A model generated the notes under the pieces. That model had not been told where the DNA came from. It was given only the letters and a program-made list of their open reading frames with translations, and ran no database searches. A stretch of DNA of 64,000 bases from a virus, in IMG/VR virus record IMGVR_UViG_3300044731_001604, positions 32,001-96,000 of that record; one strand, given 5' to 3'. The position numbers and the translations under genes are program-made. Every line of letters begins with the position of its first letter. Position 1 is the stretch's first letter. Below, in pieces: positions 3,071 through 44,000 of this stretch.

Positions 3071-3268
3071 ATGGTCAAAAGAAGGCAGCTAAGTGATTTT
3101 CTTAAAAAGTATCTCTACAATAAGCTTTATAGCCAGTCTATGATCACAACTGAATACGTTTGGGACAAAGTATGGTACAGCACTAGACCTGATCTCTACC
3201 TATTGCTTCATGTTAATATCGAAATAGAAATTACTAAACACATAAGACAAATTAAGGCCACTAAATGA
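3071..3268 (+). CDS. MKKRxQ-family small protein A2
   Basis: MVKRRQL start. Confidence 0.75.
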   Translation: MVKRRQLSDFLKKYLYNKLYSQSMITTEYVWDKVWYSTRPDLYLLLHVNIEIEITKHIRQIKATK

Positions 3269-3456
3269 GGAAAAGAGACCAGATTGATGATTCTAAATTT
3301 TTTTGGCGATTAGTTGACCGCACCTTATCTTGGCGCATAGACGATGAACTTGGGGCATATCTTAGATGGCAATTTCGCGACAATTTAGATGATAACCTTT
3401 ACTATCACTTGTATAGACACATAAGCGATTTCTTAAGGCAAGAGGAATTAAAATGA
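3265..3456 (+). CDS. MKKRxQ-family small protein A3
   Basis: MRKRDQI start, 4-residue periodicity, ATGA overlap. Confidence 0.8.
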   Translation: MRKRDQIDDSKFFWRLVDRTLSWRIDDELGAYLRWQFRDNLDDNLYYHLYRHISDFLRQEELK

Positions 3457-3632
3457 GAAGAAGAAATTCAATTGATGCATACCATAGACTATTGCTCTCT
3501 CTTGCTAAGAATTCAGGTAAAGTCGTAAAAGATGACTATTTTAACAGACTTATGGATATAGTTCGCGAAGGGGCTAACCAAGAAATGAAAATTAAGCTCT
3601 ATGCCTATTTAAAAGATGTGAGGTCAAAATGA
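3453..3632 (+). CDS. MKKRxQ-family small protein A4 (59 aa)
   Basis: Not in track; MRRRNSIDAY...; ATGA overlaps at both ends. Confidence 0.7.
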   Translation: MRRRNSIDAYHRLLLSLAKNSGKVVKDDYFNRLMDIVREGANQEMKIKLYAYLKDVRSK

Positions 3633-3811
3633 AGAAACATATTCACATGGACGACATGTTTTATATAAAAATGCATACAGCCATAAAGTCTAGATTAGAT
3701 GATAGTTTGTACGATAGATTGTATTTTATATTTTTAGACGACAAGATGAATTGCATTAGGCGTGAATTGAGAAGACATATAGCAAATTCTCTCGTAAGAT
3801 GGCACAGATGA
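3629..3811 (+). CDS. MKKRxQ-family small protein A5
   Basis: MKKHIHM start, periodic LDDSLYDRLY core. Confidence 0.7.
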   Translation: MKKHIHMDDMFYIKMHTAIKSRLDDSLYDRLYFIFLDDKMNCIRRELRRHIANSLVRWHR

Positions 3812-3987
3812 GAAAACGAGAATTTATTGAAAAAAATTTTCATGAAAAAATCTATGAAAAATACCACGATCAACTTGATGCAAATTTGCATTTTAAATTA
3901 CACCAAAAAATATACCACGAACTACGTGAAGACATTTATTGGGAATTATATAAACAAGTTAGGAACATAGTAGCTAATTGGAGCTAA
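3808..3987 (+). CDS. MKKRxQ-family small protein A6
   Basis: Start revised to MRKREFI (ATGA overlap). Confidence 0.75.
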   Translation: MRKREFIEKNFHEKIYEKYHDQLDANLHFKLHQKIYHELREDIYWELYKQVRNIVANWS

Positions 3988-3988
3988 T

Positions 3989-4174
3989 GTGAAGAAACGT
4001 AAGCAATTAGATAAATTCTTTTTCAGAACACGAATGAGGTTGAATAAAGACATACCATTTCGTTTATATTCTAGTGGCCGCGTAAATCATTATATTGATT
4101 CATCTTTGACAAACAATTCTGTATGTAGCGGTATTATATTGTTAATTAAATCAGAAATCGAGGGCGAAGAATGA
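3989..4174 (+). CDS. MKKRxQ-family small protein A7
   Basis: GTG start, KKRKQL. Confidence 0.7.
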   Translation: MKKRKQLDKFFFRTRMRLNKDIPFRLYSSGRVNHYIDSSLTNNSVCSGIILLIKSEIEGEE

Positions 4175-4383
4175 GGAAGAGGGAGAGGGCCAACCTTCAG
4201 GTTAGAAGGTTAGTAGATTACATACCATGCGATATACTTACGGCTGGGTTAACAAGCAGAATCAGCTTTAAAGCCGCTGATATGTATGATATACTTAAAG
4301 TGGGTATTATTAATAGGCTTATACATTGCATACAAGACTATGATTCAAAAAAGGCATCAAATGAGGCGAAGAGAAATACTTAA
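4171..4383 (+). CDS. MKKRxQ-family small protein A8
   Basis: MRKRER start, ATGA overlap. Confidence 0.7.
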   Translation: MRKRERANLQVRRLVDYIPCDILTAGLTSRISFKAADMYDILKVGIINRLIHCIQDYDSKKASNEAKRNT

Positions 4384-4570
4384 CCAGCAGTTTTATATTT
4401 GGAACGAAAGCCAATGGATTGATAAGCTTTGGTATCAACTTGGAAGCGAGAGAACTAAGGTATTGATACCATTTATTAAAAACCATATTGGTGTTGAACT
4501 TAAAGAACAGATATATGGACAGCTTAAGTGTAATTTGAGATTACATGTAAGAAATACTGAAGGGATTTAA
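4361..4570 (+). CDS. MKKRxQ-family small protein A9
   Basis: Start revised to MRRREIL inside track ORF 4286..4570. Confidence 0.7.
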   Translation: MRRREILNQQFYIWNESQWIDKLWYQLGSERTKVLIPFIKNHIGVELKEQIYGQLKCNLRLHVRNTEGI

Positions 4571-4571
4571 G

Positions 4572-4751
4572 ATGATAAAAAGAATTCCTATTTCTAGTGA
4601 AAAGATTAGCGATAAGCTTTTTGATATGGTGTATAGTCAACCTTATTATGGAATGCGAAAGCGTATTCGTAATCAACTTAGTGTTAAGCTCAGTAACCAA
4701 TTATATCAGGAATTGATTTTGCCTATTGCCTATCAAAAGAGGGTTAATTAA
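4572..4751 (+). CDS. MKKRxQ-family small protein A10 (59 aa)
   Basis: Not in track; MIKRIPI...IRNQLSVKLSNQLYQEL...QKRVN. Confidence 0.75.
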   Translation: MIKRIPISSEKISDKLFDMVYSQPYYGMRKRIRNQLSVKLSNQLYQELILPIAYQKRVN

Positions 4752-4752
4752 T

Positions 4753-5001
4753 ATGAAAAAGCGAAAACAGTTGGAGAATCAGTTCGGGTATCAGTTGGGG
4801 TATGAGTCGGTGAATCAGTTGGTGAATCAGTTGAGGTATCAGTTGGTGTATCAGTTGGTGTATCAGTTGGTGTATCAGTTGGAGAATCAGTTGGTGAATC
4901 AGTTGGAGAATCAGTTGAGGTATCAGTTGAGGTATCAGTTGAGGGATCAGTTGGTGAATCAGTTGAGAAAAACTGAAACTGTTTACAAGAGGGTTAATTA
5001 A
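4753..5001 (+). CDS. MKKRxQ-family small protein A11, near-perfect (QLxx)n repeat
   Basis: Start revised to MKKRKQL at 4753; 82 aa. Confidence 0.75.
   Translation: MKKRKQLENQFGYQLGYESVNQLVNQLRYQLVYQLVYQLVYQLENQLVNQLENQLRYQLRYQLRDQLVNQLRKTETVYKRVN
4768..4968 (+). repeat. 12-bp tandem repeat CAGTTG-RDG-DAT, 16 units plus a partial
   Basis: Read directly; encodes QL[VERG][NYD]; two units carry point changes (QFGY, ESVN). Confidence 0.95.
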
Positions 5002-5002
5002 T

Positions 5003-5185
5003 ATGAAAAAGCGAAAACAAATTGCAGACATATCATTTAATGTTTTCAGAGAAGCATTTATTACACAGATTTATAAAAAAAGTGACTTAAAGTATAATTG
5101 CATAATTGATGAGCAACTGACCTCTAAATTAGTAAATCAGACTCTTGGATATCAAATACGATACTTGATTATAGGTTTGTTCTAA
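5003..5185 (+). CDS. MKKRxQ-family small protein A12
   Basis: MKKRKQI start. Confidence 0.75.
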   Translation: MKKRKQIADISFNVFREAFITQIYKKSDLKYNCIIDEQLTSKLVNQTLGYQIRYLIIGLF

Positions 5186-5365
5186 ATGGTTAAAAGAATC
5201 CCACTCAAAGACGGATTATATGTTAAAATAGACAGTGCTTTTAACTGCCAGTTAGAGTACAAAGTCTATACGCTGCTTCGTGAAAAGCTTTTCGTTGTTC
5301 TTTGGGACGAAATTAGGGATCAACTTGAAAGAAATGTCAGAATATCTTTAAAAAACAGGGCATAA
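5186..5365 (+). CDS. MKKRxQ-family small protein A13 (59 aa)
   Basis: Not in track; MVKRIPL...LWDEIRDQLERNV. Confidence 0.75.
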   Translation: MVKRIPLKDGLYVKIDSAFNCQLEYKVYTLLREKLFVVLWDEIRDQLERNVRISLKNRA

Positions 5366-5366
5366 G

Positions 5367-5540
5367 ATGAGGAAAAGAGAGCAGATTGATAACATTTTAT
5401 TTGTTCAATTTACAGATGTGCTTAAAGACTCATTTGGGGACAATGTAAGCATGCCATTTTTTTATAAGATAATGCTGGCATTACAAGGGGAATTAGTTGG
5501 CGAACTTTATAGACAATTAGAATCACAGGTGTTGAGATGA
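5367..5540 (+). CDS. MKKRxQ-family small protein A14 (57 aa)
   Basis: Not in track; MRKREQIDN. Confidence 0.75.
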   Translation: MRKREQIDNILFVQFTDVLKDSFGDNVSMPFFYKIMLALQGELVGELYRQLESQVLR

Positions 5541-5734
5541 AGAAACGAGAACAACTGATAACTAACTTATATTTTAAATTTTATAAGAAATATAACGATT
5601 TGCCAAATGAGGAAACTTTTGATATAATCAACGGAGAACTTGGCGATAAGTTAAATAGACAGATTTGGTATCCTGTTCGTGGGGAGTTATTCGATCAACT
5701 TTATTGTCATACTATTAAGAAAGAAGCGAAATGA
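5537..5734 (+). CDS. MKKRxQ-family small protein A15
   Basis: MKKREQL start. Confidence 0.8.
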   Translation: MKKREQLITNLYFKFYKKYNDLPNEETFDIINGELGDKLNRQIWYPVRGELFDQLYCHTIKKEAK

Positions 5735-5940
5735 AAAAACGAGTTCAAATACCTGGGCATCTTGGTGACAAATTGTGGGAACAACTGGCTTACACCATGA
5801 GCGGTCAATTAAGATTCAAGCTTAAAATGGTTTTAGCAAACTCTAGTTTAGTTGATGAATATGACACTGCTGCGGCGCATTGCCACCTTAGAAAAAATGT
5901 TTATTGCCACCTTAGATTTAACAGTGGGATTAGAAAATGA
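5731..5940 (+). CDS. MKKRxQ-family small protein A16
   Basis: MKKRVQI start. Confidence 0.8.
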   Translation: MKKRVQIPGHLGDKLWEQLAYTMSGQLRFKLKMVLANSSLVDEYDTAAAHCHLRKNVYCHLRFNSGIRK

Positions 5941-6107
5941 GACAACGCGATCAAATATATAGACATTTTTCTTCGCATTTAGATTATGAACTAAAGTGTT
6001 TGTATAGAAATCAATTTGATGAGTGGTTGTTTTATCATATTGGGCGAAACATAGGAAATACTGTCAAGTATGATCTTATTAATTTGCAGGAATTGTTGGG
6101 AAAATGA
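5937..6107 (+). CDS. MKKRxQ-family small protein A17 (56 aa)
   Basis: Not in track; MRQRDQI; ATGA overlaps at both ends. Confidence 0.75.
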   Translation: MRQRDQIYRHFSSHLDYELKCLYRNQFDEWLFYHIGRNIGNTVKYDLINLQELLGK

Positions 6108-6295
6108 GAAAGCGCGAAGAAATAAGTGTTATAAACAGCATAGACCAGATTTCTAGAAACAAAATGCTTATTCAAGTAGGTACGCCTGTACGTAATCAGA
6201 TTGTTAGCAGATTGCGCGACAATCTTTTAAATGAACTATTAGACCAACTGTATATGCATACGGCTTATTACCTCAATGAGAGGGTGACAAAATGA
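6104..6295 (+). CDS. MKKRxQ-family small protein A18
   Basis: MRKREEI start. Confidence 0.8.
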   Translation: MRKREEISVINSIDQISRNKMLIQVGTPVRNQIVSRLRDNLLNELLDQLYMHTAYYLNERVTK

Positions 6296-6489
6296 AAAAA
6301 AGGATTGAGATTGATTCCATGGTTTTTGATAAGATTCAGGAGCATCTTTTTAATTTTTATTTCGATAAGAGAATTGATCGGTCGCTATACAAGAAATTCT
6401 TAGATGATCTTGAGGAATCTGACGCAAACAATTCCGTCAATCTTATAATGTCGGCAGTAATTTGGCGCATTGAAAGGGAAACACTATGA
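6292..6489 (+). CDS. MKKRxQ-family small protein A19
   Basis: MKKRIEI start. Confidence 0.8.
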   Translation: MKKRIEIDSMVFDKIQEHLFNFYFDKRIDRSLYKKFLDDLEESDANNSVNLIMSAVIWRIERETL

Positions 6490-6683
6490 AAAAACGTGAT
6501 CAAATTAACTATCAACTTTATGAGCTATACTTTGAATTTAATAAACTGTATCCAAAGTTATCATCAACAAATGATTATTACGTAATTAATACTGCAACAA
6601 GAACAGCACTTTATGATATGTTTTACGGTGAAATTAGATGGCATCTTAAAGGTTTTGTGAGAGATTTTAAGGGTTTGTCATGA
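6486..6683 (+). CDS. MKKRxQ-family small protein A20
   Basis: MKKRDQI start. Confidence 0.8.
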   Translation: MKKRDQINYQLYELYFEFNKLYPKLSSTNDYYVINTATRTALYDMFYGEIRWHLKGFVRDFKGLS

Positions 6684-6874
6684 TAAAGCGTAAGCAGATT
6701 AACGACAAAGTACATAGTAGACTACTCAAAGTGTGCTTTTCTAAATTAAAATTACCCAACAATGTTTACTTCGCAATTCATGACAGGCTTACTGAAAAAC
6801 TATATGAAATTAGTTGGGGGCAGATTAGAAGCAAGGTTTACGACGAAATACATATGATAAGTAAAGTGAATTAA
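6680..6874 (+). CDS. MKKRxQ-family small protein A21
   Basis: MIKRKQI start. Confidence 0.8.
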   Translation: MIKRKQINDKVHSRLLKVCFSKLKLPNNVYFAIHDRLTEKLYEISWGQIRSKVYDEIHMISKVN

Positions 6875-6875
6875 A

Positions 6876-7067
6876 ATGACTAAAAGATATCAATTAACAG
6901 ACAGATTATATACCAGCGTACTAAGAGTATACATGCCGTCCTCTTCTTGGGTATATGACATGCTGCTTGATGAAATTTATAATCCCATTTATTTACAACT
7001 TAGGGATCAACTTAGAGAACACGTTCGCAACAGTATCGAATCGTTAAAGCAAAGTGAACTAAAATGA
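6876..7067 (+). CDS. MKKRxQ-family small protein A22
   Basis: MTKRYQL start; LQLRDQLREHV. Confidence 0.8.
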   Translation: MTKRYQLTDRLYTSVLRVYMPSSSWVYDMLLDEIYNPIYLQLRDQLREHVRNSIESLKQSELK

Positions 7068-7261
7068 TTAAAAGAGAGCAGATCGACAGCCAGATAGATA
7101 TTATATTATATGCATACGTTGATGAACAAATTTATTATCAATTGGATAAGCTTTTTGAAAATTTCTTGAGAGAAGAGCTTGATGACCAATTATATACGGA
7201 GCTTGATATAAATCTTCGTCTTGAGCTGTACAGATATCTAAATAATGGGGTATTAAGATGA
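7064..7261 (+). CDS. MKKRxQ-family small protein A23
   Basis: MIKREQI start; strong 4-residue periodicity. Confidence 0.8.
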   Translation: MIKREQIDSQIDIILYAYVDEQIYYQLDKLFENFLREELDDQLYTELDINLRLELYRYLNNGVLR

Positions 7262-7443
7262 AGAAGAGAGAATGTTTAGAGATGAAATTAGGTGATAAAC
7301 TAGCTTTCAAATATTATAATGAGTTACAAGATGGCCAACACCATTTAATATACGCTCATGTAAAAAAAACTCTCGTGAAAGAGGTTCACCAAAATGTTAG
7401 AACTCAGCTAAGTGCCTATCTGAGAGCAGAGGTACCAAAGTGA
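7258..7443 (+). CDS. MKKRxQ-family small protein A24
   Basis: MKKRECL start. Confidence 0.8.
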   Translation: MKKRECLEMKLGDKLAFKYYNELQDGQHHLIYAHVKKTLVKEVHQNVRTQLSAYLRAEVPK

Positions 7444-7661
7444 TAAAACGCGAGCAGATTGATAGTCATATATATACTTTTATCTATGATGATTTATACA
7501 ATCAGCTATATGGTCAAATTAGCGTCACGTGCGGTAAATGGACATTTGACTATGTTTACAGTAGTTTAACTTTGCAGTATTATAACTTATCATCAGATGG
7601 CCAGTACAGCTCTTTGGTAAACATCGTTTTAACTGATCTAGAGAAAAAGGTGTTGAAATGA
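7440..7661 (+). CDS. MKKRxQ-family small protein A25
   Basis: GTG start, IKREQI; GTGA overlap. Confidence 0.75.
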   Translation: MIKREQIDSHIYTFIYDDLYNQLYGQISVTCGKWTFDYVYSSLTLQYYNLSSDGQYSSLVNIVLTDLEKKVLK

Positions 7662-7837
7662 GAAAAAGAGAGCAGATTGACAACACATTGGATGACAATA
7701 TAAGAGACATTTTGAATGTCAGCTTGGGCTCTAACTTTAGAAATCAAATGTTTTCACGTATTTATAGAAATGTTAGCGCAAGGGCTGATCTGCTACATTT
7801 TATATATTACTATATAAGTACACAAAAGGTTAAATAA
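7658..7837 (+). CDS. MKKRxQ-family small protein A26 (59 aa)
   Basis: Not in track; MRKREQIDN. Confidence 0.75.
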   Translation: MRKREQIDNTLDDNIRDILNVSLGSNFRNQMFSRIYRNVSARADLLHFIYYYISTQKVK

Positions 7838-8037
7838 TGAGGAAAAGAGTACAGATAGACAGACAAATTAATGAGAATCTCAGAGACCCTTTTTACGTAA
7901 AGCTTAGTAATCAATTTAATTATTATGCTTACAATGACATTAGGTCTAACCTATACCCAGAACTTTTCTTGATTGTATACGATCAATTATATAATAATAT
8001 ATATTATGTCATGAGAGAATTGGTAGTGTCAAAATGA
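7837..8037 (+). CDS. MKKRxQ-family small protein A27
   Basis: MRKRVQI start. Confidence 0.8.
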   Translation: MRKRVQIDRQINENLRDPFYVKLSNQFNYYAYNDIRSNLYPELFLIVYDQLYNNIYYVMRELVVSK

Positions 8038-8279
8038 AAAAGCGAGATCGGTTACTAGATAACACAATGAGTCGGTTAATAGATCTTTTAGAAGACAGGC
8101 TTGAGAATAAGATAGTGGATTATTTGGGTTGTCAGTTAGATGATAAGTTATATTATGAGTTTAGAAGTGAGTTAAGAATTAAGTTTTATGATCGGTTAGT
8201 AGATCAAATGAATAATCAACTAAGACATCATTTAAGGACGCAAGTATATGGAGTCGAGAGAAAACATAGAAATATTTGA
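8034..8279 (+). CDS. MKKRxQ-family small protein A28, repeat still visible in DNA
   Basis: MKKRDRL; recurrent GATCGGTTA-like units. Confidence 0.8.
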   Translation: MKKRDRLLDNTMSRLIDLLEDRLENKIVDYLGCQLDDKLYYEFRSELRIKFYDRLVDQMNNQLRHHLRTQVYGVERKHRNI

Positions 8280-8427
8280 TTATACTCGTATAATAATGAG
8301 ATCGTCATATTTTTCTTCTAACAAAATTATATTTGAAACAGATCAAAAGCTCATGTGTATGCTAATTCCATTTTTTCTAGAAATGAGGCAGCAAATCAGG
8401 GAGCATATTACGGGCAATTGCAAATGA
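8248..8427 (+). CDS. Divergent family member A29 (59 aa)
   Basis: Not in track; MESRENI...MRQQIREHI; fills the gap and ends in an ATGA overlap. Confidence 0.55.
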   Translation: MESRENIEIFDYTRIIMRSSYFSSNKIIFETDQKLMCMLIPFFLEMRQQIREHITGNCK

Positions 8428-8603
8428 AGAAACGTAAACAGATTTTCTTGAAGGAATATAACCGCGTATTTACTAAAATGGGTATGCCACTTCCGTCTTC
8501 AGTTGAAGAGGCGGTAGAAACTCAGTTAAAAGATAAGCTTAGGGATGAATTGTTACACCAACTTAGGCTTCACGTTAAAACCCATTTAATGGAAATGAAA
8601 TGA
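8424..8603 (+). CDS. MKKRxQ-family small protein A30
   Basis: Start revised to MKKRKQI. Confidence 0.8.
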   Translation: MKKRKQIFLKEYNRVFTKMGMPLPSSVEEAVETQLKDKLRDELLHQLRLHVKTHLMEMK

Positions 8604-8794
8604 TTAAAAGAAAAATGATACAATACAATTTTAAGACTTTGTTCCACGATTGCCTGTATTCTCAACTTGAGCCAATATTGTATCATAGGCTAAGAGACAG
8701 CTTAAACCATAAGCTTCAGCACTATACGCATAACCCACTTAAGATAGAGCTTTACTATCACATGAATGAAAAGAAAAGCTCCAATTCTAATTAA
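8600..8794 (+). CDS. MKKRxQ-family small protein A31
   Basis: MIKRKMI start; stop overlaps the convergent gene's stop. Confidence 0.8.
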   Translation: MIKRKMIQYNFKTLFHDCLYSQLEPILYHRLRDSLNHKLQHYTHNPLKIELYYHMNEKKSSNSN

Positions 8795-32939: not shown

Positions 32940-33128
32940 ATGACTAAGCGCGAATTGTCCGCATCTGTTTACATATTGGTTACTTTTATTATATGCTATT
33001 TTGCTTATGGTGTTTATCAGACAAAACAACAAATTTCTCAAGCTTGTGAAGATCAGTGCTACCCGGCGGATGTTAAAGACGCAGATATGCAATATTGTAA
33101 ATGTTTTTACAAAAAAGCTGGGATGTAA
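32940..33128 (+). CDS. Small membrane protein, Cys-rich C-terminus
   Basis: TM helix then CxxxC...CxC. Confidence 0.6.
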   Translation: MTKRELSASVYILVTFIICYFAYGVYQTKQQISQACEDQCYPADVKDADMQYCKCFYKKAGM

Positions 33129-33301
33129 TGGTTAAAAGAGAGCGCATTAGTCTTGGTCTTAATGGTAAAATAAGTTTAGTAATCGGCGATCAAGTCGGAT
33201 ACGATCTATTAAATCATTTGTACACGAAGCTCTATAAAGATTTAAACTATAGTATTGCAATTAAACTACGTTCATACTTATACGAGAAACCCCAAAAATG
33301 A
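33128..33301 (+). CDS. MKKRxQ-family small protein B1
   Basis: Start revised to MVKRERI (TAATG overlap). Confidence 0.7.
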   Translation: MVKRERISLGLNGKISLVIGDQVGYDLLNHLYTKLYKDLNYSIAIKLRSYLYEKPQK

Positions 33302-33495
33302 ATAAGAGAGATCAACACACCATTTCATTTGATTATGAGCTGAGGACAGTATTTCATAATTATTTTTCAACACAAATGCATGGCGATCTTACAAGAGATG
33401 TGTGGATGGAAATTTGGGAAAAACTCGCCTACCAACTAAAAGATAATATGAAAGATAAAGTTAAAGACGTAATTAAGGACAGAATTTCAAAATGA
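33298..33495 (+). CDS. MKKRxQ-family small protein B2
   Basis: MNKRDQ start; VWMEIWEKLAYQLKDNM. Confidence 0.75.
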   Translation: MNKRDQHTISFDYELRTVFHNYFSTQMHGDLTRDVWMEIWEKLAYQLKDNMKDKVKDVIKDRISK

Positions 33496-35587: not shown

Positions 35588-37714
35588 TTAATATATCTCT
35601 CGCCATTGTAATCCAGCTGATATATTTGTGGCTTTTGTATCAATATTTTTAACAATTATGACATAAACTTCCGAGTTAGTAGAATCAAAATTTTGCACTA
35701 TATAGTTCTTTTTAGCCGAACTTGGAATTACTGCATTTGAATCGCTTCCAGCCTTACTTCCGCCTTGTGACGCAGATGCTGCAAACCCAACGCTTAGTAT
35801 GTCTGCATTTGTATATCCAGTCGCATTAGCTAGATATTCAACGCCACTTTCAGAGTTAGTACTGGTCCACACTCCAGCTCCACCTGTTAAGTTAGACGCA
35901 TTTTGTAATTTTGCTATAGAAAATTGAACGTTACCAGAATCAGTGAAAACTGTAACTTGTCCTAGTCTAGCTAACATACGATTTAAATATGTTTTATAAT
36001 TATTTTTCAATCTAATTGCTAATATTGGTAAAGTTTGACCTGTGCCCAAAAGTCTTGGTGTGGGACTTGCAAGCGCCCAATCAATTCCAGCCTCAACATA
36101 TCCGCCTTCACTAACAACTGTACTACAAATTTGATCCATATATGCACCAGTTGTAACTCCGGTGTTAAATATTTCGCAGCGAACTGGCAAATTTGGATTA
36201 CTCATATAAACTGTAGTAAGATTATTTTCGCCATCAAAATGATGCGCCTCAATATATTTACCCTCATGAGAAAACCCAACCCTGACTCTTCCCACGCCAA
36301 GCCATTGAAAATCTATAAAAAGCAACTGAGTTTTTGTAATATCTAAGTTTAAAGAACTAATTCCAGTTCCATCGCACTTGTCAACATTCCAATTTAACTG
36401 AGAAACTCTATTTTCATTGACGGCACCATTAATATAGCTTCTTAAGACAATATTTAAGGTTCCGTTTCCGGTTTGTTCAAAGTAAATTCCATTATTATCA
36501 TCAAACAGCCCAGTTCTTTTTGTCACCCCTGAAGTACTTGAATAAAAATTAAAGGATGACATTATTAGCTGGCTTTTTCCTGGCATATAATGATGATAGC
36601 ATTTGGTCTGGTGTATCGCCTTACTATTAACATCACTGCTGGTAGTCAATCTCGCGCATGCTTTATTTGATTGAAATGAAATAGTTCCACCATTTAATGT
36701 ATAGTCTATGAAATTTGGGTCTATTCCGTAGAGATGTTTATAGTCTCCAAGGGTATACGGCTCGCTCACTCTTTGTCTTGCAAAAGCATCTAGTGTGCCG
36801 ACCCCAGGAGTTGTAAAAACAGATCCGGATACTACCCACGGATTTGTTCCTTGATTTGCAGTAACTGTTCCGTTTACAGTTTGAGTTGCCGGGAAATTAC
36901 CAACATCAACTGTTCCGTTTACAGTTTGAGTTGCCGGGAAATTACCAACATCAACTGTTCCGTTTACAGTTTGAGTTGCCGGGAAATTACCAACATCAAC
37001 TGTTCCGTTTACTGTTTGTGTAGCTGGGAAATTACCAACATCAACTGTTCCGTTTACTGTTTGTGTAGCTGGGAAATTACCAACATCAACTGTTCCGTTT
37101 ACTGTTTGTGTAGCTGGGAAATTACCAACATCAATGGAAGAGTTTAAAAAATATACGTCTAACCCAATATCAGTTCCAACAGTATGCGATGTTAAAAAAT
37201 TGGTTCCGTCTCCAAGACGAACAGAATCATTTGTATGTGTAAGATCAACGTCTAGGCTAACTTCTGGCTTAATTGTAATATTTGCATCAACAGCAAGTCT
37301 ATTAACTCCATTTTCATCTGCTACAAATTCTGCATACTGACCATATTTATCTACGAGGATTGATCTTTTTGCATTTATTGGATCTTCTGCATGACTAGCT
37401 CTTTCAAAAATCTCCATTCCCATCGGATTTCTTTGTTGTTCCCAAGCAGTTAAGGTTCCGCCGGAGTACGAAGTAGGATTGGAAAATGTGGCCATGTCTT
37501 TTCCAACTGGACCGACTTGAATCTGAGTGTCAGAGATAACTCTCTTAATTTCAAGCTCTAGTTGTTCTAAGCCTGTTTTATTTAAATATACCAATTGTTT
37601 AGGATGTAATAATCCTTGAGTATCTGGTACTGTAATTATATGATTTGAAACTTGAATCGGATTGGCTAAAAATGTAGGCCACCGTCTATCAAACGACGAA
37701 GTTAACTTGCTCAT
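35588..37714 (-). CDS. Virion/appendage protein with 15-aa repeats and lectin-like C-terminal domain
   Basis: Six DVGNFPATQTVNGTV repeats; C-term DAFARQRVS...KRTGLFDDNNGIYFE...WLGVGRVRVG; start could be 37735. Confidence 0.6.
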   Translation of the reverse strand: MSKLTSSFDRRWPTFLANPIQVSNHIITVPDTQGLLHPKQLVYLNKTGLEQLELEIKRVISDTQIQVGPVGKDMATFSNPTSYSGGTLTAWEQQRNPMGMEIFERASHAEDPINAKRSILVDKYGQYAEFVADENGVNRLAVDANITIKPEVSLDVDLTHTNDSVRLGDGTNFLTSHTVGTDIGLDVYFLNSSIDVGNFPATQTVNGTVDVGNFPATQTVNGTVDVGNFPATQTVNGTVDVGNFPATQTVNGTVDVGNFPATQTVNGTVDVGNFPATQTVNGTVTANQGTNPWVVSGSVFTTPGVGTLDAFARQRVSEPYTLGDYKHLYGIDPNFIDYTLNGGTISFQSNKACARLTTSSDVNSKAIHQTKCYHHYMPGKSQLIMSSFNFYSSTSGVTKRTGLFDDNNGIYFEQTGNGTLNIVLRSYINGAVNENRVSQLNWNVDKCDGTGISSLNLDITKTQLLFIDFQWLGVGRVRVGFSHEGKYIEAHHFDGENNLTTVYMSNPNLPVRCEIFNTGVTTGAYMDQICSTVVSEGGYVEAGIDWALASPTPRLLGTGQTLPILAIRLKNNYKTYLNRMLARLGQVTVFTDSGNVQFSIAKLQNASNLTGGAGVWTSTNSESGVEYLANATGYTNADILSVGFAASASQGGSKAGSDSNAVIPSSAKKNYIVQNFDSTNSEVYVIIVKNIDTKATNISAGLQWREIY
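36863..37132. repeat. 45-bp tandem repeat x6
   Basis: Two synonymous variants in blocks of 3+3. Confidence 0.95.
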
Positions 37715-37789
37715 AATAAAATTTCCCCAACCCAATGAAATTATTCATTTATGCCCCACGGCATTACTAAACCAATGTCTAGCTAATTA

Positions 37790-37838: not shown

Positions 37839-38036
37839 TTAAATGCGTTTTGAAGTCTGAATATATCTTTGCGCCTGTTCTTTGGTTTCTTTATATAAAA
37901 CATCAAATAACATACTGCCGAGATTTGAATATGATTTTGAATAAATACTATAGGATGGCATGTTGCAATATTTTGAATACAGCCTGCTTCTGAAACTAGT
38001 AAGGTGTGCGCTCCCCAATGCTTCTCGTTTTTCCAT
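37839..38036 (-). CDS. MKKRxQ-family small protein C3
   Basis: MEKREAL start. Confidence 0.65.
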   Translation of the reverse strand: MEKREALGSAHLTSFRSRLYSKYCNMPSYSIYSKSYSNLGSMLFDVLYKETKEQAQRYIQTSKRI

Positions 38037-38037
38037 C

Positions 38038-38229
38038 TTATTTGCCTATTTTTTCTTCATATAATTGTTGGTGAGTTTGATCTCTTAATTCGTACCAGAG
38101 CGTGATGTCTTTTAATTGCTCCCAAATTTGGGCATACATTTGATCTGATATTGTGGAATGGAGCCACATATACAGTTCGTCCCTAAATCTCTCTCTTAGT
38201 TTATCCCGAAACTGCTCTCTTTTTCTCAT
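38038..38229 (-). CDS. MKKRxQ-family small protein C2
   Basis: MRKREQFRDKLRERFRDELY. Confidence 0.8.
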   Translation of the reverse strand: MRKREQFRDKLRERFRDELYMWLHSTISDQMYAQIWEQLKDITLWYELRDQTHQQLYEEKIGK

Positions 38230-38421
38230 TTATGTATTTTTCTTTTGGGTTTCGTGACAGATTTGTTCACATATTTGATCAATCAATTCTGCATTGATTT
38301 CATATATTTCTTCCCAAGTCCCTTCTAAAACATTATCAATAACGTCACCATATACGTTTCTATCAATCATTTCATATAAATGATCTTTGATTTTTCTATA
38401 TATCTGATGACGTTTTTTCAT
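38230..38421 (-). CDS. MKKRxQ-family small protein C1
   Basis: Start revised to MKKRHQI. Confidence 0.75.
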   Translation of the reverse strand: MKKRHQIYRKIKDHLYEMIDRNVYGDVIDNVLEGTWEEIYEINAELIDQICEQICHETQKKNT

Positions 38422-38428
38422 TGTATGC

Positions 38429-39535
38429 CTACAATCTGATAACTTTGCCGAAATCGCCTGGTGGATTTTGTGACCCAACTCCTACCCAAATAAAGGGAAT
38501 GCCTGGATTTGTCGGCGTGTCTGCGCAATCAAAATCACCGAAATATATAATAGCGTCACATTTTCTTTTTACGCATTCGTCAATTGCTGGTTGATATGCA
38601 GTTCCACCGCTACCAAATCTTTTTGTTAATACACCAGGTTTAGCTTTTCCACCTTTAATTACATCAACTTTTTGCACTTCAGAATCTGCGTGGACTAAGT
38701 AAGTGATCGTAGTATTTTTTGCTATAGATGATATTTCATTTAAGAATGATGAGTAAGCTTCGTCCGAGATTGACCCTGACGAATCAGTACATACACCAAG
38801 TATTAAATTTCTTTTCTTTTTCTTGCCTGGTTGATCTAGCTCAAATCTTCTGTGAGTTTTAAGGCGTGTGCTTTTAGTTTGGACGTCCCTAGCCGATGAA
38901 ACAAAGTTTCTTAAGAGCTGCTTCCAGCTAATTGTCGCTGGTTTATTTAAATTACCAATGATAGACTCTAATCCATTCGGAACAAGCCCACCAGATGCCT
39001 TTATGGCTTGATTAACCTTGTCTTTAATAATCACTCTATCTAAATCGCCTTTTTCGCTTTCGTTCATTTCATCATGATCGCTCATCCACGATGCTACTTC
39101 TTGCTTATCTGCTACTTCTGCCATTTCTTTGTAATAGTATTCCCAAGACTCTTTTGGCAAAAGTTTCTTCTTACACATTTCTTCTGCCCACGCAAGCGTA
39201 ATGCAATCTGATGGTAAATCAGAAATGTGTTGGTTAATAGCGCAATCTTTTGCTATGTTTGTTAATTGATGATTAAGGATATCTCCAGCCCTATTGCCGA
39301 TATGATCTAAAACCGCGTGTAAAACTTCGTGTTTTAACACAGCAATCTGTTGAGCATCGGTTAATGTTGCAAACCAGTCTGGATTTACTTTAAAGTAAAG
39401 CTCTTTGTTCTTAATACCTACGCAAGCTCTTTCAATTTTTGGATCATCATAAACGACTCTAGAGCCTAAAATAAAATTAGCATAGAATCGTTCGGTATTA
39501 ATTAACGTAAAAATTGGCTTTTCTAGTAAACCCAT
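38429..39535 (-). CDS. DUF2201-type protein: HExxH metallopeptidase-like N-terminus plus VWA-like domain
   Basis: HEVLH, NIAKDCAINQ, MIDAS-like TDSSGSI, GSGGT, YFGD. Confidence 0.85.
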   Translation of the reverse strand: MGLLEKPIFTLINTERFYANFILGSRVVYDDPKIERACVGIKNKELYFKVNPDWFATLTDAQQIAVLKHEVLHAVLDHIGNRAGDILNHQLTNIAKDCAINQHISDLPSDCITLAWAEEMCKKKLLPKESWEYYYKEMAEVADKQEVASWMSDHDEMNESEKGDLDRVIIKDKVNQAIKASGGLVPNGLESIIGNLNKPATISWKQLLRNFVSSARDVQTKSTRLKTHRRFELDQPGKKKKRNLILGVCTDSSGSISDEAYSSFLNEISSIAKNTTITYLVHADSEVQKVDVIKGGKAKPGVLTKRFGSGGTAYQPAIDECVKRKCDAIIYFGDFDCADTPTNPGIPFIWVGVGSQNPPGDFGKVIRL

Positions 39536-39558: not shown

Positions 39559-40617
39559 TTATGCTTTTTCAAACTGAGCTGCGTATTCGGGGTCATTTAA
39601 GAGATCATTTTTTCCATGGAAATTGCCAAGTTTTCCTAATCCGACAAAGGCTTTCATAGCTAACTCAATTGGGATATCTAGTAGAAATTGCTTTAGATTA
39701 TCAATAGACATATCTGCTGAAAGGAGGTGAGGGTTGCTCTCTAGTTTAGCAAATAATTCATCAATTGGCTGATTAAGAACATCCATGCGAACATTGCTAG
39801 CACTTGCCGTGATATCTAATACTTTATTTCTAGCAATTTTTTTGTAGTTTTTAAGAATGTCATTAAGGCTTAATCCTGTTTCTTGCTTAGCTTTGTGTGT
39901 TAATCTAGCCGCTGCTGCAACCGGCCCTACAATACCTGAATATAATTCATATCTTAGACTATCATCTAATCCTTCTTCTAAATCAAGGGCGCCAACGCTT
40001 TCAAGCCAAGCTCTAGGGTCTCTTGTAACCATTGACATATCAAGTCTTCCGCCTTCTTTTGCAGTAAGATTTAACATCTCAGGTTGTTCACGAATAAAAG
40101 AAGCAAGGCTAAATAATCCTCTGCTTTCTGCATAAACTAACCATTCTTCAGTTGTAGGAGTGAAATCAATATGACAGAAACGAGATAGCCAAGCTGAGTC
40201 GCTTGTATCTGTTGTAGTGAATCTTTCTGATTGGTAGTTTCCAGCAGCAGCGATACGCCAACCCGGAGGTAATTTGTGTGTATGAATAGTTCCATTTTGC
40301 ACAAAAGAATACATTGCTTGAATTACATCAGTCGGCGCTCTATTTAATTCATCTAAAAAGATAATTCCTTCACCCTCAGTAGGAAACCATTTAGGTTTTG
40401 CATGATAAACTTCGCCGTTTTCGCCTTTAACTAAGAGGCCAACTAAATCGCCCACATCTTGAGTAGCCGTGTGTAAAACTCTTAATTGTAAGTTGTTCTT
40501 TACGCAATACTGATTCCAAAACTGTGTCTTTCCAACACCTTGACTGCCCCAAAAGAATGGAACAATTCGGTTTTTTAATAGAAAAGGAATAGCTTTGTTG
40601 ATTTCAGAAATATTCAT
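39559..40617 (-). CDS. MoxR-like AAA+ ATPase
   Basis: Walker A GSQGVGKT, Walker B IIFLDELNRA, AAGN, SRF; start revised to MNISE after GGAGG. Confidence 0.9.
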   Translation of the reverse strand: MNISEINKAIPFLLKNRIVPFFWGSQGVGKTQFWNQYCVKNNLQLRVLHTATQDVGDLVGLLVKGENGEVYHAKPKWFPTEGEGIIFLDELNRAPTDVIQAMYSFVQNGTIHTHKLPPGWRIAAAGNYQSERFTTTDTSDSAWLSRFCHIDFTPTTEEWLVYAESRGLFSLASFIREQPEMLNLTAKEGGRLDMSMVTRDPRAWLESVGALDLEEGLDDSLRYELYSGIVGPVAAAARLTHKAKQETGLSLNDILKNYKKIARNKVLDITASASNVRMDVLNQPIDELFAKLESNPHLLSADMSIDNLKQFLLDIPIELAMKAFVGLGKLGNFHGKNDLLNDPEYAAQFEKA

Positions 40618-40636
40618 CTGGACCTCCGTTTCAATT

Positions 40637-40665
40637 ATCATAACATTTTATTTTCGGTACGTCAA
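40637..40665 (-). promoter_or_regulatory. sigma70-type promoter (leftward arm)
   Basis: TTGACG-17 nt-TATGAT with extended TG. Confidence 0.7.
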
Positions 40666-40679
40666 CCTAAAAAAACTTA

Positions 40680-40707
40680 TTGCAAATTGTTTTATTTGTG
40701 CTACATT
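40680..40707 (+). promoter_or_regulatory. sigma70-type promoter (rightward arm)
   Basis: TTGCAA-16 nt-TACATT with extended TG. Confidence 0.5.
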
Positions 40708-40740
40708 TAATATGTACCATTTAACAAAAAGGAGCATAAA

Positions 40741-41367
40741 ATGGATAACAAAATTACTGAACTTACCCCAGAACAAGAAGCGTTATTTCCAGCTTATTTG
40801 GAAAAATTCAGAAATATCGGCCTATCAACTACTCCAACAAATAGACAAAAGGCTGAAGAGGCTTTAACAAAAGCTTATGCTTATTTATCTAAAACTGATC
40901 CTAATTTATGCGTTCCAAATCCAGAAATCATCTGGGCAGAAAGCCCAATGGCAGGCGCAGTTCTTGCTGCTCAACACGCTAAAGGCGATCTTAACGTAAC
41001 AGATTCAGAAGTGCAAGATCAAGCTTGGCGAGCTTCTTATGGTTCATTCGAGGCATACTGGGTGAGTACTTATTCATTTATCTGCAATGAGCTTCCAGTA
41101 GAAAAAGACGAGCTTATCGACATCGTTATGGAAATCATCAATGAGTGCGGCGTGTACTGGACATATAAAGATTTGGTTATCCTTACTCCAAAGCCAACTT
41201 TTATCGGAATGAAAGACGGAAAATTACACAACTCTAAAGGGCTAGCTTTAGCATATCCAGATGGAAACGGAATCTATGCTGTAAATGGTTCTAGAAAAAA
41301 CTCTTTAATTGAAGCTACGTTAGAACAAAGAGCTAACAGCTTAATTGGTTCAACTTCAGAAGATTAA
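40741..41367 (+). CDS. DUF6745-like protein
   Basis: ITELTPEQEA...IGLST.P.NR..AE; IIWAESP; YG..EAYW..Y; CG.YW.Y..L.IL..KP; GKLHN..G.AL.YPDG..IYA.NG. Confidence 0.75.
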   Translation: MDNKITELTPEQEALFPAYLEKFRNIGLSTTPTNRQKAEEALTKAYAYLSKTDPNLCVPNPEIIWAESPMAGAVLAAQHAKGDLNVTDSEVQDQAWRASYGSFEAYWVSTYSFICNELPVEKDELIDIVMEIINECGVYWTYKDLVILTPKPTFIGMKDGKLHNSKGLALAYPDGNGIYAVNGSRKNSLIEATLEQRANSLIGSTSED

Positions 41368-41390
41368 AATAAACACGTATGAGGGTCGCC

Positions 41391-41582
41391 ATGAGGCAAA
41401 GAGATCAGATAAATAGAATAAGCAACAAGTATTTTGATCATATTGACGGCGACCTTTATAATGAAAATTTTCATTTAATATCAGATTATCTCCAATACAT
41501 TTTATACATTGAGCGCTCACCAGTCGATAACATTGTTGACGAGCTATCCACATATATTGAGACTATGAATTTGGGGAATTGA
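41391..41582 (+). CDS. MKKRxQ-family small protein D1
   Basis: Start revised to MRQRDQI. Confidence 0.75.
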   Translation: MRQRDQINRISNKYFDHIDGDLYNENFHLISDYLQYILYIERSPVDNIVDELSTYIETMNLGN

Positions 41583-41587
41583 TTTAA

Positions 41588-41785
41588 ATGAAAAAACGCA
41601 AGCAGATAGACGGAATCCTTTTTACGATTATTGAAAACAATCTTTACCATCAGGTATACTACGATGTCAATTCAAAAAATCGAGAAAAGATCTATACAGG
41701 AATTTACGAACTGCTTATGGATGAACTAAATGTTAAGTTAATAAATATTATTAACGATTTTATTAAATCGAGAAGAGCATCATGA
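41588..41785 (+). CDS. MKKRxQ-family small protein D2
   Basis: MKKRKQI start. Confidence 0.8.
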   Translation: MKKRKQIDGILFTIIENNLYHQVYYDVNSKNREKIYTGIYELLMDELNVKLINIINDFIKSRRAS

Positions 41786-41979
41786 AAAAAAGGGTTCAGA
41801 TACCTGATTTTTTAAATGAAAACATATGCGATCATCTTAGATATAGCATATATGTTCAAGTTGATGATACTATTTGGCGTGTAATACTATCTGAACTATA
41901 TATAAAACTTCATGATAAGCTTAACAATACGTTAATTAATGAAACCTGGGATTATATTAAAATGGGGCCAAAAATATGA
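41782..41979 (+). CDS. MKKRxQ-family small protein D3
   Basis: MKKRVQI start. Confidence 0.8.
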   Translation: MKKRVQIPDFLNENICDHLRYSIYVQVDDTIWRVILSELYIKLHDKLNNTLINETWDYIKMGPKI

Positions 41980-42182
41980 AAAAGCGCATCCAATTTAATG
42001 ATCCTCTATATAATATATTCTATCCTAAAATTAGAGATAGAGTTAGGCTTGAAATAAAATATAAAACTTTTGAAAAGATAAGCAAGAGACTCACTGGTGA
42101 GCTTAATTCGCAATTCTGGGGCCAAATTGGATATCAGATTGGTAAATACATCGAGGATAGGAGTTCAAGTGAGAAGGCGTGA
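41976..42182 (+). CDS. MKKRxQ-family small protein D4
   Basis: MKKRIQF start. Confidence 0.8.
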   Translation: MKKRIQFNDPLYNIFYPKIRDRVRLEIKYKTFEKISKRLTGELNSQFWGQIGYQIGKYIEDRSSSEKA

Positions 42183-42351
42183 GCAGATTACTGATCAGCT
42201 TAGGGATAATGTTTGGGAATCTTTAAACGGGCAGCTCCAATATCAAATTGAACCAGATATCTATAATAGGCTGCATGACGTTCTGTGCGAAGAAAAGAGA
42301 TACAGACTCATAAGCCAATTATATTTATATTTAAGGACTAGGGTTAACTAA
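42169..42351 (+). CDS. MKKRxQ-family small protein D5
   Basis: Start revised to GTG-RRREQITDQLRDNVW after AGGAG. Confidence 0.75.
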   Translation: MRRREQITDQLRDNVWESLNGQLQYQIEPDIYNRLHDVLCEEKRYRLISQLYLYLRTRVN

Positions 42352-42555
42352 ATGAGGAAACGAGAACAAATCACTAGTCAATTTTCATATCAACTTTGGG
42401 ATAGACTTAGAGATGACATATACGTGCAACTGTATTCCTCATTTAATGAGGACATACACAATAAACTCAGGGACAATCTTTGGCTTGAGCTGCAAATATT
42501 ATTGTACGATAGAACGTATAGCTATTTGCAAAACTATATAGGCAAGAAGCAATGA
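42352..42555 (+). CDS. MKKRxQ-family small protein D6
   Basis: MRKREQI; QLWDRLRDDIYVQLY. Confidence 0.8.
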   Translation: MRKREQITSQFSYQLWDRLRDDIYVQLYSSFNEDIHNKLRDNLWLELQILLYDRTYSYLQNYIGKKQ

Positions 42556-43188: not shown

Positions 43189-43407
43189 ATGAGGAAAAGA
43201 GAGCAGCCTAATAATTTGTTTTTTAACCAACTTGTCATAAAGCTTAGGGATCAAGCTGAAAACCAACTTTGTGATAATTTAAGTTATCAACTACATGATA
43301 ATCTTAAGCTTTACAAGATTTGTGAACAGTTTCGCAATACAGCTCTTAATATTATTCGTACACAATCATTAAATGATATTGATAATAAATTAAAAAGAAA
43401 GGTTTAA
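43189..43407 (+). CDS. MKKRxQ-family small protein E1
   Basis: Start revised to MRKREQ; QLCDNLSYQLHDNL. Confidence 0.75.
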   Translation: MRKREQPNNLFFNQLVIKLRDQAENQLCDNLSYQLHDNLKLYKICEQFRNTALNIIRTQSLNDIDNKLKRKV

Positions 43408-43778: not shown

Positions 43779-44000
43779 ATGAAGAAACGTAAGCAAATAT
43801 CAGATCATATAAGTAATGATTTAAAGTTTGAGCTTTTTGATAGGCTTGAAGAGCAGGTTGATGGTGAACTTTTTGATCAAATTGATGAGGAACTTTTTGA
43901 GTACGTTACAGGTGGAAGCTACATTGACATAGATGTAAACTTAATAAAAGAACAGTTGTTTTCTCATATTGAAAATATAAATGGCCGAAAGGTTGGTTAA
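43779..44000 (+). CDS. MKKRxQ-family small protein E2
   Basis: MKKRKQI; ELFD/ELFE x3. Confidence 0.8.
   Translation: MKKRKQISDHISNDLKFELFDRLEEQVDGELFDQIDEELFEYVTGGSYIDIDVNLIKEQLFSHIENINGRKVG

Follow-up and report, generated by a model that had tools for sequence, protein, structure and literature searches.

A described phage gene similar in design to the system treated here is gene 54 of mycobacteriophage Tweety, in which two unique domains flank a 12-bp coding repeat whose silent sites are frozen and whose variation falls at codon positions 1 and 2 (PMC2884959). Changes in repeat number retune the counter-defence specificity of its product, gp54, against Phrann gp29/gp30 (PMC9262239). Together with Che8 gp57 and PMC gp51, Tweety gp54 is the product of an accessory gene, and its architecture is like that of the long forms of the DUF6745 family, known from Mycobacterium phage prophiGD102-1 (gp38), Microcystis phage Ma-LMM01, the MaMV phages and Caudoviricetes sp. 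MW202476 (UOF77368.1). The long forms enclose a tract of tetrapeptide repeats within the protein. The locus described here lies in a 64,000-nucleotide stretch ("the window") comprising bases 32001-96000 of an uncultured phage record (IMGVR_UViG_3300044731_001604; 157.6 kb, 98% complete). It encodes a tract-less DUF6745 protein of 208 residues (40741..41367, plus strand), in a genome that also carries about 40 free-standing small genes ("mini-genes") built of the same type of repeat. Set against published work, the locus is a new, split form of a repeat-bearing family of phage proteins that is itself uncharacterised. The two arrangements, free mini-genes and an internal tract, are mutually exclusive, no free mini-gene having been found in about 100 tract-bearing loci, and the tract and the mini-genes are likely to be linked in evolution and in function.

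The open reading frame (ORF) at 40741-41367, identified by Pfam, phrog_31813, an AlphaFold2 model and the alignment of a stub described below, is, as judged from conservation and a predicted fold, a functional and conserved short form of DUF6745. It reaches 32.8 bits (E=5.3e-8; gathering cut-off 27) against Pfam DUF6745 (PF20530), residues 98-184 corresponding to profile positions 8-88 of 206. The N-terminal ~80 residues match phrog_31813 (positions 22-97 of 378; E=1.8e-8), and the N-terminal domain shared with the long forms (LTPEQE...IGLST...SP) is present, matching a hidden Markov model (HMM) of the long-form domain at E=3.9e-21. The C-terminal half of the 206-position DUF6745 domain, with its CPSTG-type motif, is lacking: the chain stops soon past the YA.NG motif, where the aligned P0114 and P0119 run ~110 residues further, and in the short clade a short helix stands in place of this half. 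Since PF20530 matches only one place in the 157.6-kb genome, the 208-residue gene itself, the missing half is not encoded elsewhere as a separate piece. A search for relatives of near-equal length returned 140 proteins at E<=0.001, and the 120 of them that were listed show 45-97% identity and are almost all of ~200 residues. In an alignment of 27 relatives the short segment that stands in the place of the tract and the early C-terminus are alike, 20 columns are invariant, and the consensus of the segment is G-x-x-x-V-T-x-x-E-I-x-x-Q-A-x-x-A-S-Y-G-S-F-E-A-Y-W; P0114 and P0119, which are nested within this alignment, retain the C-terminal half.

The AlphaFold2 model of the 208-residue protein is a single compact domain (predicted local distance difference test, pLDDT, 94.6; predicted template modelling score 0.86), with a short helix at residues 88-96 where the tract would exit the body. 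Foldseek comparison of the model with the PDB gave no informative relative (best E 0.3), a wide VIA-align search gave no resembling solved fold (best Z 4.2), and an Atlas look-up returned DUF6745 clusters only. The gene is preceded by a 99-bp divergent intergenic region (40642..40740), which on direct reading holds a strong ribosome-binding site of the AAGGAG type 7 nt upstream of the ATG; promoter-like hexamers in this region are no more frequent than chance.

The tract is the norm of the family. In the long forms it follows the "...SP" motif and precedes the aromatic core motif (P0121, L011, L014, L001 and many more), and its unit varies, being xxQV in P0121 and L011, xSQL in L009a, xxNL in L014 and xSSL in MW202476. 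As measured on the coordinates of HMMs built from long forms, the interval between N-domain and core has a median of 139.5 residues in tract-bearing representatives (n=128) and of 68 in cyanobacterial chromosomal members (n=66), the latter intervals being degenerate yet strongly period-4 (hydrophobic index 0.83 against a control median of 0.33 and 95th percentile of 0.60). In the short clade the median is 8 residues (range 1-27, n=121). For the 208-residue protein itself it is 11 residues (76-87), which do not qualify as a period-4 tract. Homology between the long forms and the window protein extends over the N-terminal domain and the initial ~90 positions of the DUF6745 core; the two differ in the interval (~70-430 residues as against 8-11) and in the C-terminal half, which the long forms keep. 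What is left of the tract in the window protein is a conserved two-tetrad stub (residues ~86-95, "SEVQDQA") that aligns with the final two tetrads of internal tracts. The mini-protein HMM does not match the 208-residue protein, which is not a member of the mini-gene family and resembles the repeat unit at the stub alone. In a natural tract-bearing short form (L105) the body is modelled well by AlphaFold2 and the tract appears as a helix-loop-helix at low confidence (pLDDT <50). Many IMG/VR contigs (e.g. L107/L148, L109/L119, L124/L165) have both ends within a DUF6745 tract; assemblies break at the 12-bp repeat, and tract lengths in databases are for this reason often lower bounds. DUF6745 is a large family of phages and cyanobacteria, and its hypervariable tract is among the commonest coding minisatellites in phage genomes. 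An earlier note on the window had taken the 208-residue protein for a DUF6745 member that lacks the long (V/L)xxQ-type tract usual in the family and retains a vestigial EVQDQAW, and had likened the neighbouring small genes to that tract; all of this is borne out by the Pfam match, the intervals, the stub and the comparison that follows, although the note overlooked both the C-terminal truncation and the partner genes discussed further below.

The mini-genes encode proteins of ~60 residues with the head M-[KR]-K-R-x-Q-[ILF], and 37 of the ~40 in the genome lie within the window. Six stand directly 3' of the DUF6745 gene on the same strand (41391-41582, 41588-41785, 41782-41979, 41976-42182, 42169-42351 with a GTG start, and 42352-42555), all recognised by the mini-protein HMM; within this group (41379..42555) the genes are spaced by 5-11 nt or overlap, and no terminator-like site was found among them and the DUF6745 gene. 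The main array of ~25-28 members, recognised in the same way, occupies 3071..8794 (plus strand), 32-38 kb upstream of the DUF6745 gene. In an ungapped alignment of 27 mini-proteins anchored on the head, a hydrophobic residue recurs at every fourth position along about 12 tetrads; it is present in 56-100% of sequences, and 9 of the 12 positions reach 70% or more. The position before the hydrophobic residue is enriched in Gln, the second before it in Asp, Glu or Asn, and the variable place in Tyr, Arg or Trp. This unit of a variable residue, a polar residue, often Gln, and then Leu, Ile or Val is also the unit of the DUF6745 tract, and R-x-Q-I of the head reads as the initial copy of that unit.

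A profile made from 31 of the window's mini-proteins, run against 1.84 billion protein representatives, gave 826 matches at E<=0.001. Among the best 150, DUF6745 N-domain and/or core accompany the match in 134 and, by eye, in about 4 more; the rest are ten unrelated repeat proteins and two mini-proteins of this phage. E-values against DUF6745 tracts range from 1e-52 to 1e-13. As controls, the profile matched none of the 11,823 small ORFs contained in 683 kb of DNA that surrounds cyanobacterial DUF6745 genes and did not match Tweety gp54 even with filters off. A word-indexed search with the profile found almost exclusively members from this genome, and a DNA pattern of two tandem MKKRxQ heads had just two matches in IMG/VR, both due to chance. 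The profile result is, as a matter of sequence, a pattern shared by mini-genes and tracts and not proof of their common descent.

Over whole phage records, the profile matched only the tract inside the DUF6745 gene in five tract-bearing records, namely G005 (marked 100% complete), the partial G006, G007, G008 and the circular complete genome MW202476. In tract-less records it found free-standing mini-genes, nine in the complete G001, seven in G009, five in G002 and four in G003; the tract-less G004 (84% complete) has none. Among further loci of the window's clade, the two flanks of the DUF6745 gene together hold 20 or more mini-genes in L017, at least 11 are interspersed with module genes in L186, five degenerate ones occur in L184, one lies between the DUF2201 and AAA_5 genes in L020, and L019 has one weak match just upstream; none was found within 10 kb on each side in L018, L021, L183 and L185. 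Altogether mini-genes accompany 9 of 15 loci of the clade, and in L017, L186, L020 and L004/5 they are interleaved with module genes. Around ~74 tract-bearing loci collected with L009a as seed there was no real free mini-gene, the few matches being readings of the tract in another frame or antisense. A reverse search seeded on an L186 mini-protein led to 23 loci. Nineteen of these have an internal tract and no free mini-genes; the other four are L200, where nine free mini-genes surround a tract-less protein with DUF6745 core, L201, where four are situated no more than 2 kb from a full-length DUF6745 gene without tract (81.9 bits, interval 17 residues), and L206 and L191, both described below. 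The association that the earlier note had proposed to look for, of free arrays with repeat-less DUF6745 genes, therefore holds, and phages with internal tracts are without free arrays. These results indicate that the tract can exist in two exclusive states, inside the protein or as separate amplified genes.

Unrooted trees were computed, by quick searches, from short alignments that took in the N-domain and the core's first half and left out the tract. The window's tract-less clade forms a single group (Shimodaira-Hasegawa-like approximate likelihood ratio test, SH-aLRT, 99-100), and on the best tree the tract-less state requires at least 5 changes; L200 and L201 are long branches. Another tract-less lineage is L175 with its four near-copies (L176-L179), in which a full-length tract-less protein is followed directly by three free-standing xSQL genes. 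This protein scores 19.9 bits against PF20530, under the Pfam cut-off, and is 36-38% identical to the tract-bearing P0251, P0167, P0238 and P0204, whose repeat type is likewise xSQL. It is nested in a tract-bearing clade (SH-aLRT 99-100), and since it stands among tract-bearing sequences the loss of the tract happened there. When the codons of the L175 mini-genes are compared with the tract of the relative L164, the frozen codons differ, a result that speaks neither for nor against descent.

The short form belongs to a conserved three-gene phage module with an AAA_5 ATPase and a DUF2201 protein. In the window the DUF6745 gene is divergent from that of a MoxR-like AAA+ ATPase (AAA_5; 39559..40641, minus strand; Pfam 23.9 bits, cut-off 22), and beyond the latter come, on the same minus strand, a gene for a protein with an HExxH metallopeptidase-like DUF2201_N domain and a VWA-like DUF2201 domain (38429..39535; 53.7 and 61.4 bits) and then two mini-genes (38038-38229 and 38230-38421, heads MRKREQF and MKKRHQI; mini HMM E=6e-22 and 2e-19). 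Both partners adjoin the short form in L004/5, L006, L008, L009, L016, L017, L018, L020, L021 and L183-L185; L007 has DUF2201 alone, and L186 has split DUF2201 genes and an unannotated gene for 347 residues at the position of the ATPase. Neither partner was found beside the long forms or the cyanobacterial DUF6745 genes examined. The module also occurs with a tract, since L105 and L109/L119 carry AAA_5, a C-truncated DUF6745 with internal tract and DUF2201, and no mini-genes. In L009, a complete 79.8-kb phage (7254-10928), AAA_5, DUF2201, a C-truncated DUF6745 with a 96-residue xSQL tract and a tract-less short form stand in tandem, and its two DUF6745 genes fall in different clades. In trees the truncated forms that bear a tract fall among the full-length proteins that do so and not with the window's clade, which implies that the module has recruited, or recombined with, different DUF6745 lineages.

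MoxR-type AAA+ ATPases are known in pairs with VWA partners, as in RavA-ViaA and CbbQ-CbbO. The present module is like these in gene arrangement, the AAA_5 gene adjoining a gene for a VWA-like protein; it differs in that the VWA protein bears the HExxH domain DUF2201_N and in that DUF6745 and the mini-genes have no known counterpart in the described systems.

The reading that best accommodates these observations, and which is probably correct although well short of assured, is that the mini-genes either descend from the tract by detachment or are its equivalents, that they have been amplified, and that they serve the same pathway as the module, likely for recognition in phage-host conflict. 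The tract would be a semi-autonomous helical module that was cut free of its scaffold, and the recurrence of the pattern in other phages suggests that it is detachable; the free mini-genes would then have been duplicated and diversified, to ~40 copies in this genome, and would act in the pathway of the AAA_5/DUF2201/DUF6745 module. By analogy, the mini-proteins would most likely supply variable recognition helices. The analogy is drawn from the DNA design shared with Tweety gene 54, from the tuning of gp54 by its repeats and from cyanobacterial proteins in which DUF6745 is joined to a repeat module. The earlier note had offered, as one of two possibilities, that the small-gene family arose from the excised repeat tract; excision, or equivalence of tract and mini-gene, is favoured here, and at least one further lineage (L175) shows the split independently. 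The observation stands and the link is likely, but descent itself is not proved by the profiles.

Several facts weigh against this reading. Profile scores cannot prove homology of short periodic sequences, for composition and periodicity inflate the E-values; long perfect tracts top the ranking partly through holding several copies of the profile; and the window mini-genes are themselves degenerate (period-4 index 0.73). The head MKKRxQI is without counterpart at the N-terminal edge of internal tracts, where a crude test showed no enrichment of Lys or Arg, and derivation of the basic head from that edge has accordingly been dropped. Six of the 15 members of the window's clade, including the 84%-complete genome G004, have no mini-genes in the DNA seen, and L206 has two mini-genes and no DUF6745 in the 15.7 kb in view. 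Only 2 independent contrasts lie on well-supported branches (3 on the best tree), and both accompany mini-genes; they are too few for a sign test to be significant. A literature search for a function of DUF6745 or DUF2201 found nothing, and PADLOC and NCBIfam gave no relevant matches. Finally, L016 has no mini-genes of the MKKRxQI type, and another family of small genes occupies their positions. That family, at L016:9592-16504 beside a tract-less DUF6745 of 57% identity, comprises at least 12 paralogues of 52-64 residues with the head M-P-K-L-E/K-Q-F and no period-4 body; the mini-genes may have been replaced by it, or it may have branched off from them and diverged.

The strongest alternative, unlikely but to be reckoned with, is an obligate split protein, the first of the two possibilities in the earlier note, in which each mini-protein would dock at the stub of the 208-residue scaffold and so rebuild the long form in trans, one scaffold being served by dozens of alternative inserts. 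It would account for the complementary distribution of internal tracts and free mini-genes, for the close spacing without terminator of the DUF6745 gene and the six mini-genes behind it, for a conserved stub exactly at the tract's exit from the body, and for the existence in L105 of an internal-tract version of the module that is without mini-genes. Trans-completion cannot be obligatory, however, because the scaffold is predicted by AlphaFold2 to be complete and compact without any insert, because the six relatives just mentioned show no mini-genes in the DNA seen, and because most of the mini-genes are distant, ~28 of ~40 forming the separate array 32-38 kb off; the mini-genes of L206 without DUF6745 nearby also speak against it. 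A freer version is that the module is a fixed machine that takes any of dozens of fast-evolving helical mini-proteins in trans, and that this arrangement arose repeatedly by excision of the tract. Such an arrangement is rather doubtful, but were it true the phage would encode a combinatorial library of specificities with one scaffold and many exchangeable recognition inserts, and insertion of mini-proteins into the scaffold, if it takes place, would give a virus a new route to a diversified recognition repertoire.

A quite improbable explanation is convergence, whereby the mini-genes would be an unrelated family of period-4 helices found beside tract-less DUF6745 genes only through kinship of the phages. 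The ten unrelated repeat proteins among the best 150 profile matches mean that the period-4 pattern does arise independently, all 15 loci of the window's clade owe their tract-less state to a single origin, and the head motif is not found in internal tracts. Against it stand the free mini-genes that flank tract-less DUF6745 genes of other lineages, as in L201, L200 and L175, the last nested in a tract-bearing clade and sharing the xSQL repeat type of its free genes with the tracts inside its closest relatives, and the lack of free mini-genes in ~100 tract-bearing loci and in 683 kb of DNA at cyanobacterial DUF6745 genes.

The reverse direction of change is very improbable. Here free mini-genes would be ancestral and mobile and would have been captured as tracts, the window's clade would never have borne a tract, and its stub would be the seed. 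The trees, being unrooted, allow this, with the root on the single long branch that leads to the tract-less clade; but tracts or period-4 intervals are present on every other branch, that of the cellular (cyanobacterial) members among them, L175 has tract-bearing sequences all around it in the trees, and free mini-genes are found only in phages with tract-less DUF6745 genes. Lastly, although both the tract and the C-terminal half are missing, the 208-residue ORF is almost certainly not a decaying remnant (pseudogene) of a long form, a reading ruled out by conservation (most of the 140 relatives, which are 45-97% identical, keep the short architecture, and 20 columns do not vary among 27 aligned), by a confident predicted fold and a strong ribosome-binding site, and by conserved synteny.

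Internal tracts and near-perfect mini-genes have the DNA design of Tweety gene 54. In both, CAG and a single Leu codon are frozen, and changes in the variable residue fall at codon positions 1 and 2. The proteins are not homologous: Tweety gp54 does not match Pfam DUF6745, its repeat is AAxx as opposed to x-polar-Q-L/V, and no free-standing repeat genes have been described for it. The analogy to gp54, the only repeat-tuned phage counter-defence protein known, is a testable one, and the DUF6745 family is made experimentally approachable by candidate partners and by natural fused and split versions.

In chromosomal proteins of cyanobacteria DUF6745 is found fused N-terminally to long arrays of leucine-rich repeats (L079:1-2043, 15 LRR_4 stretches) or to pentapeptide repeats (L063:2183-3952). 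These fusions resemble the phage proteins in joining a DUF6745 body to a repetitive, typically ligand-binding module, and differ in the type of repeat, in its N-terminal position and in that the two are encoded in one chain. A tract of tetrapeptides may be attached to other proteins too: in L191 (9293-10321) an xxQL tract stands behind an N-terminal region of ~240 residues with no Pfam match and no DUF6745 N-domain, and is cut by the contig end.

In arrays of near-perfect mini-genes (L017:6405-15797; L186:3300-8491; L200:78-3231) a single piece of DNA encodes, in two different frames, the conserved tail of one gene and the conserved head of its successor, as at a junction in L017 where ...YEET-stop and MKKHKQ coincide. 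Every such junction is a repeated sequence and could drive unequal recombination.

Other features of the window include further members of the mini-gene family recognised by the HMM on the plus strand, namely one of 72 residues with the head MRKREQ (43189..43407), one of 73 residues with the head MKKRKQI (43779..44000), and two degenerate ones at 33101..33495 (E=4.5e-5 and 2.1e-7). Upstream of the module a minus-strand gene (35588-37735) encodes a protein of 715 residues that contains six exact tandem copies of a 15-residue unit, DVGNFPATQTVNGTV, has no Pfam match, and may be a structural or fibre protein. Adjoining the minus-strand pair of mini-genes is an ORF of 65 residues (37839-38036, minus strand) with the head MEKREAL, which scores 13 bits on the mini-protein profile and may be a decayed member of the family.

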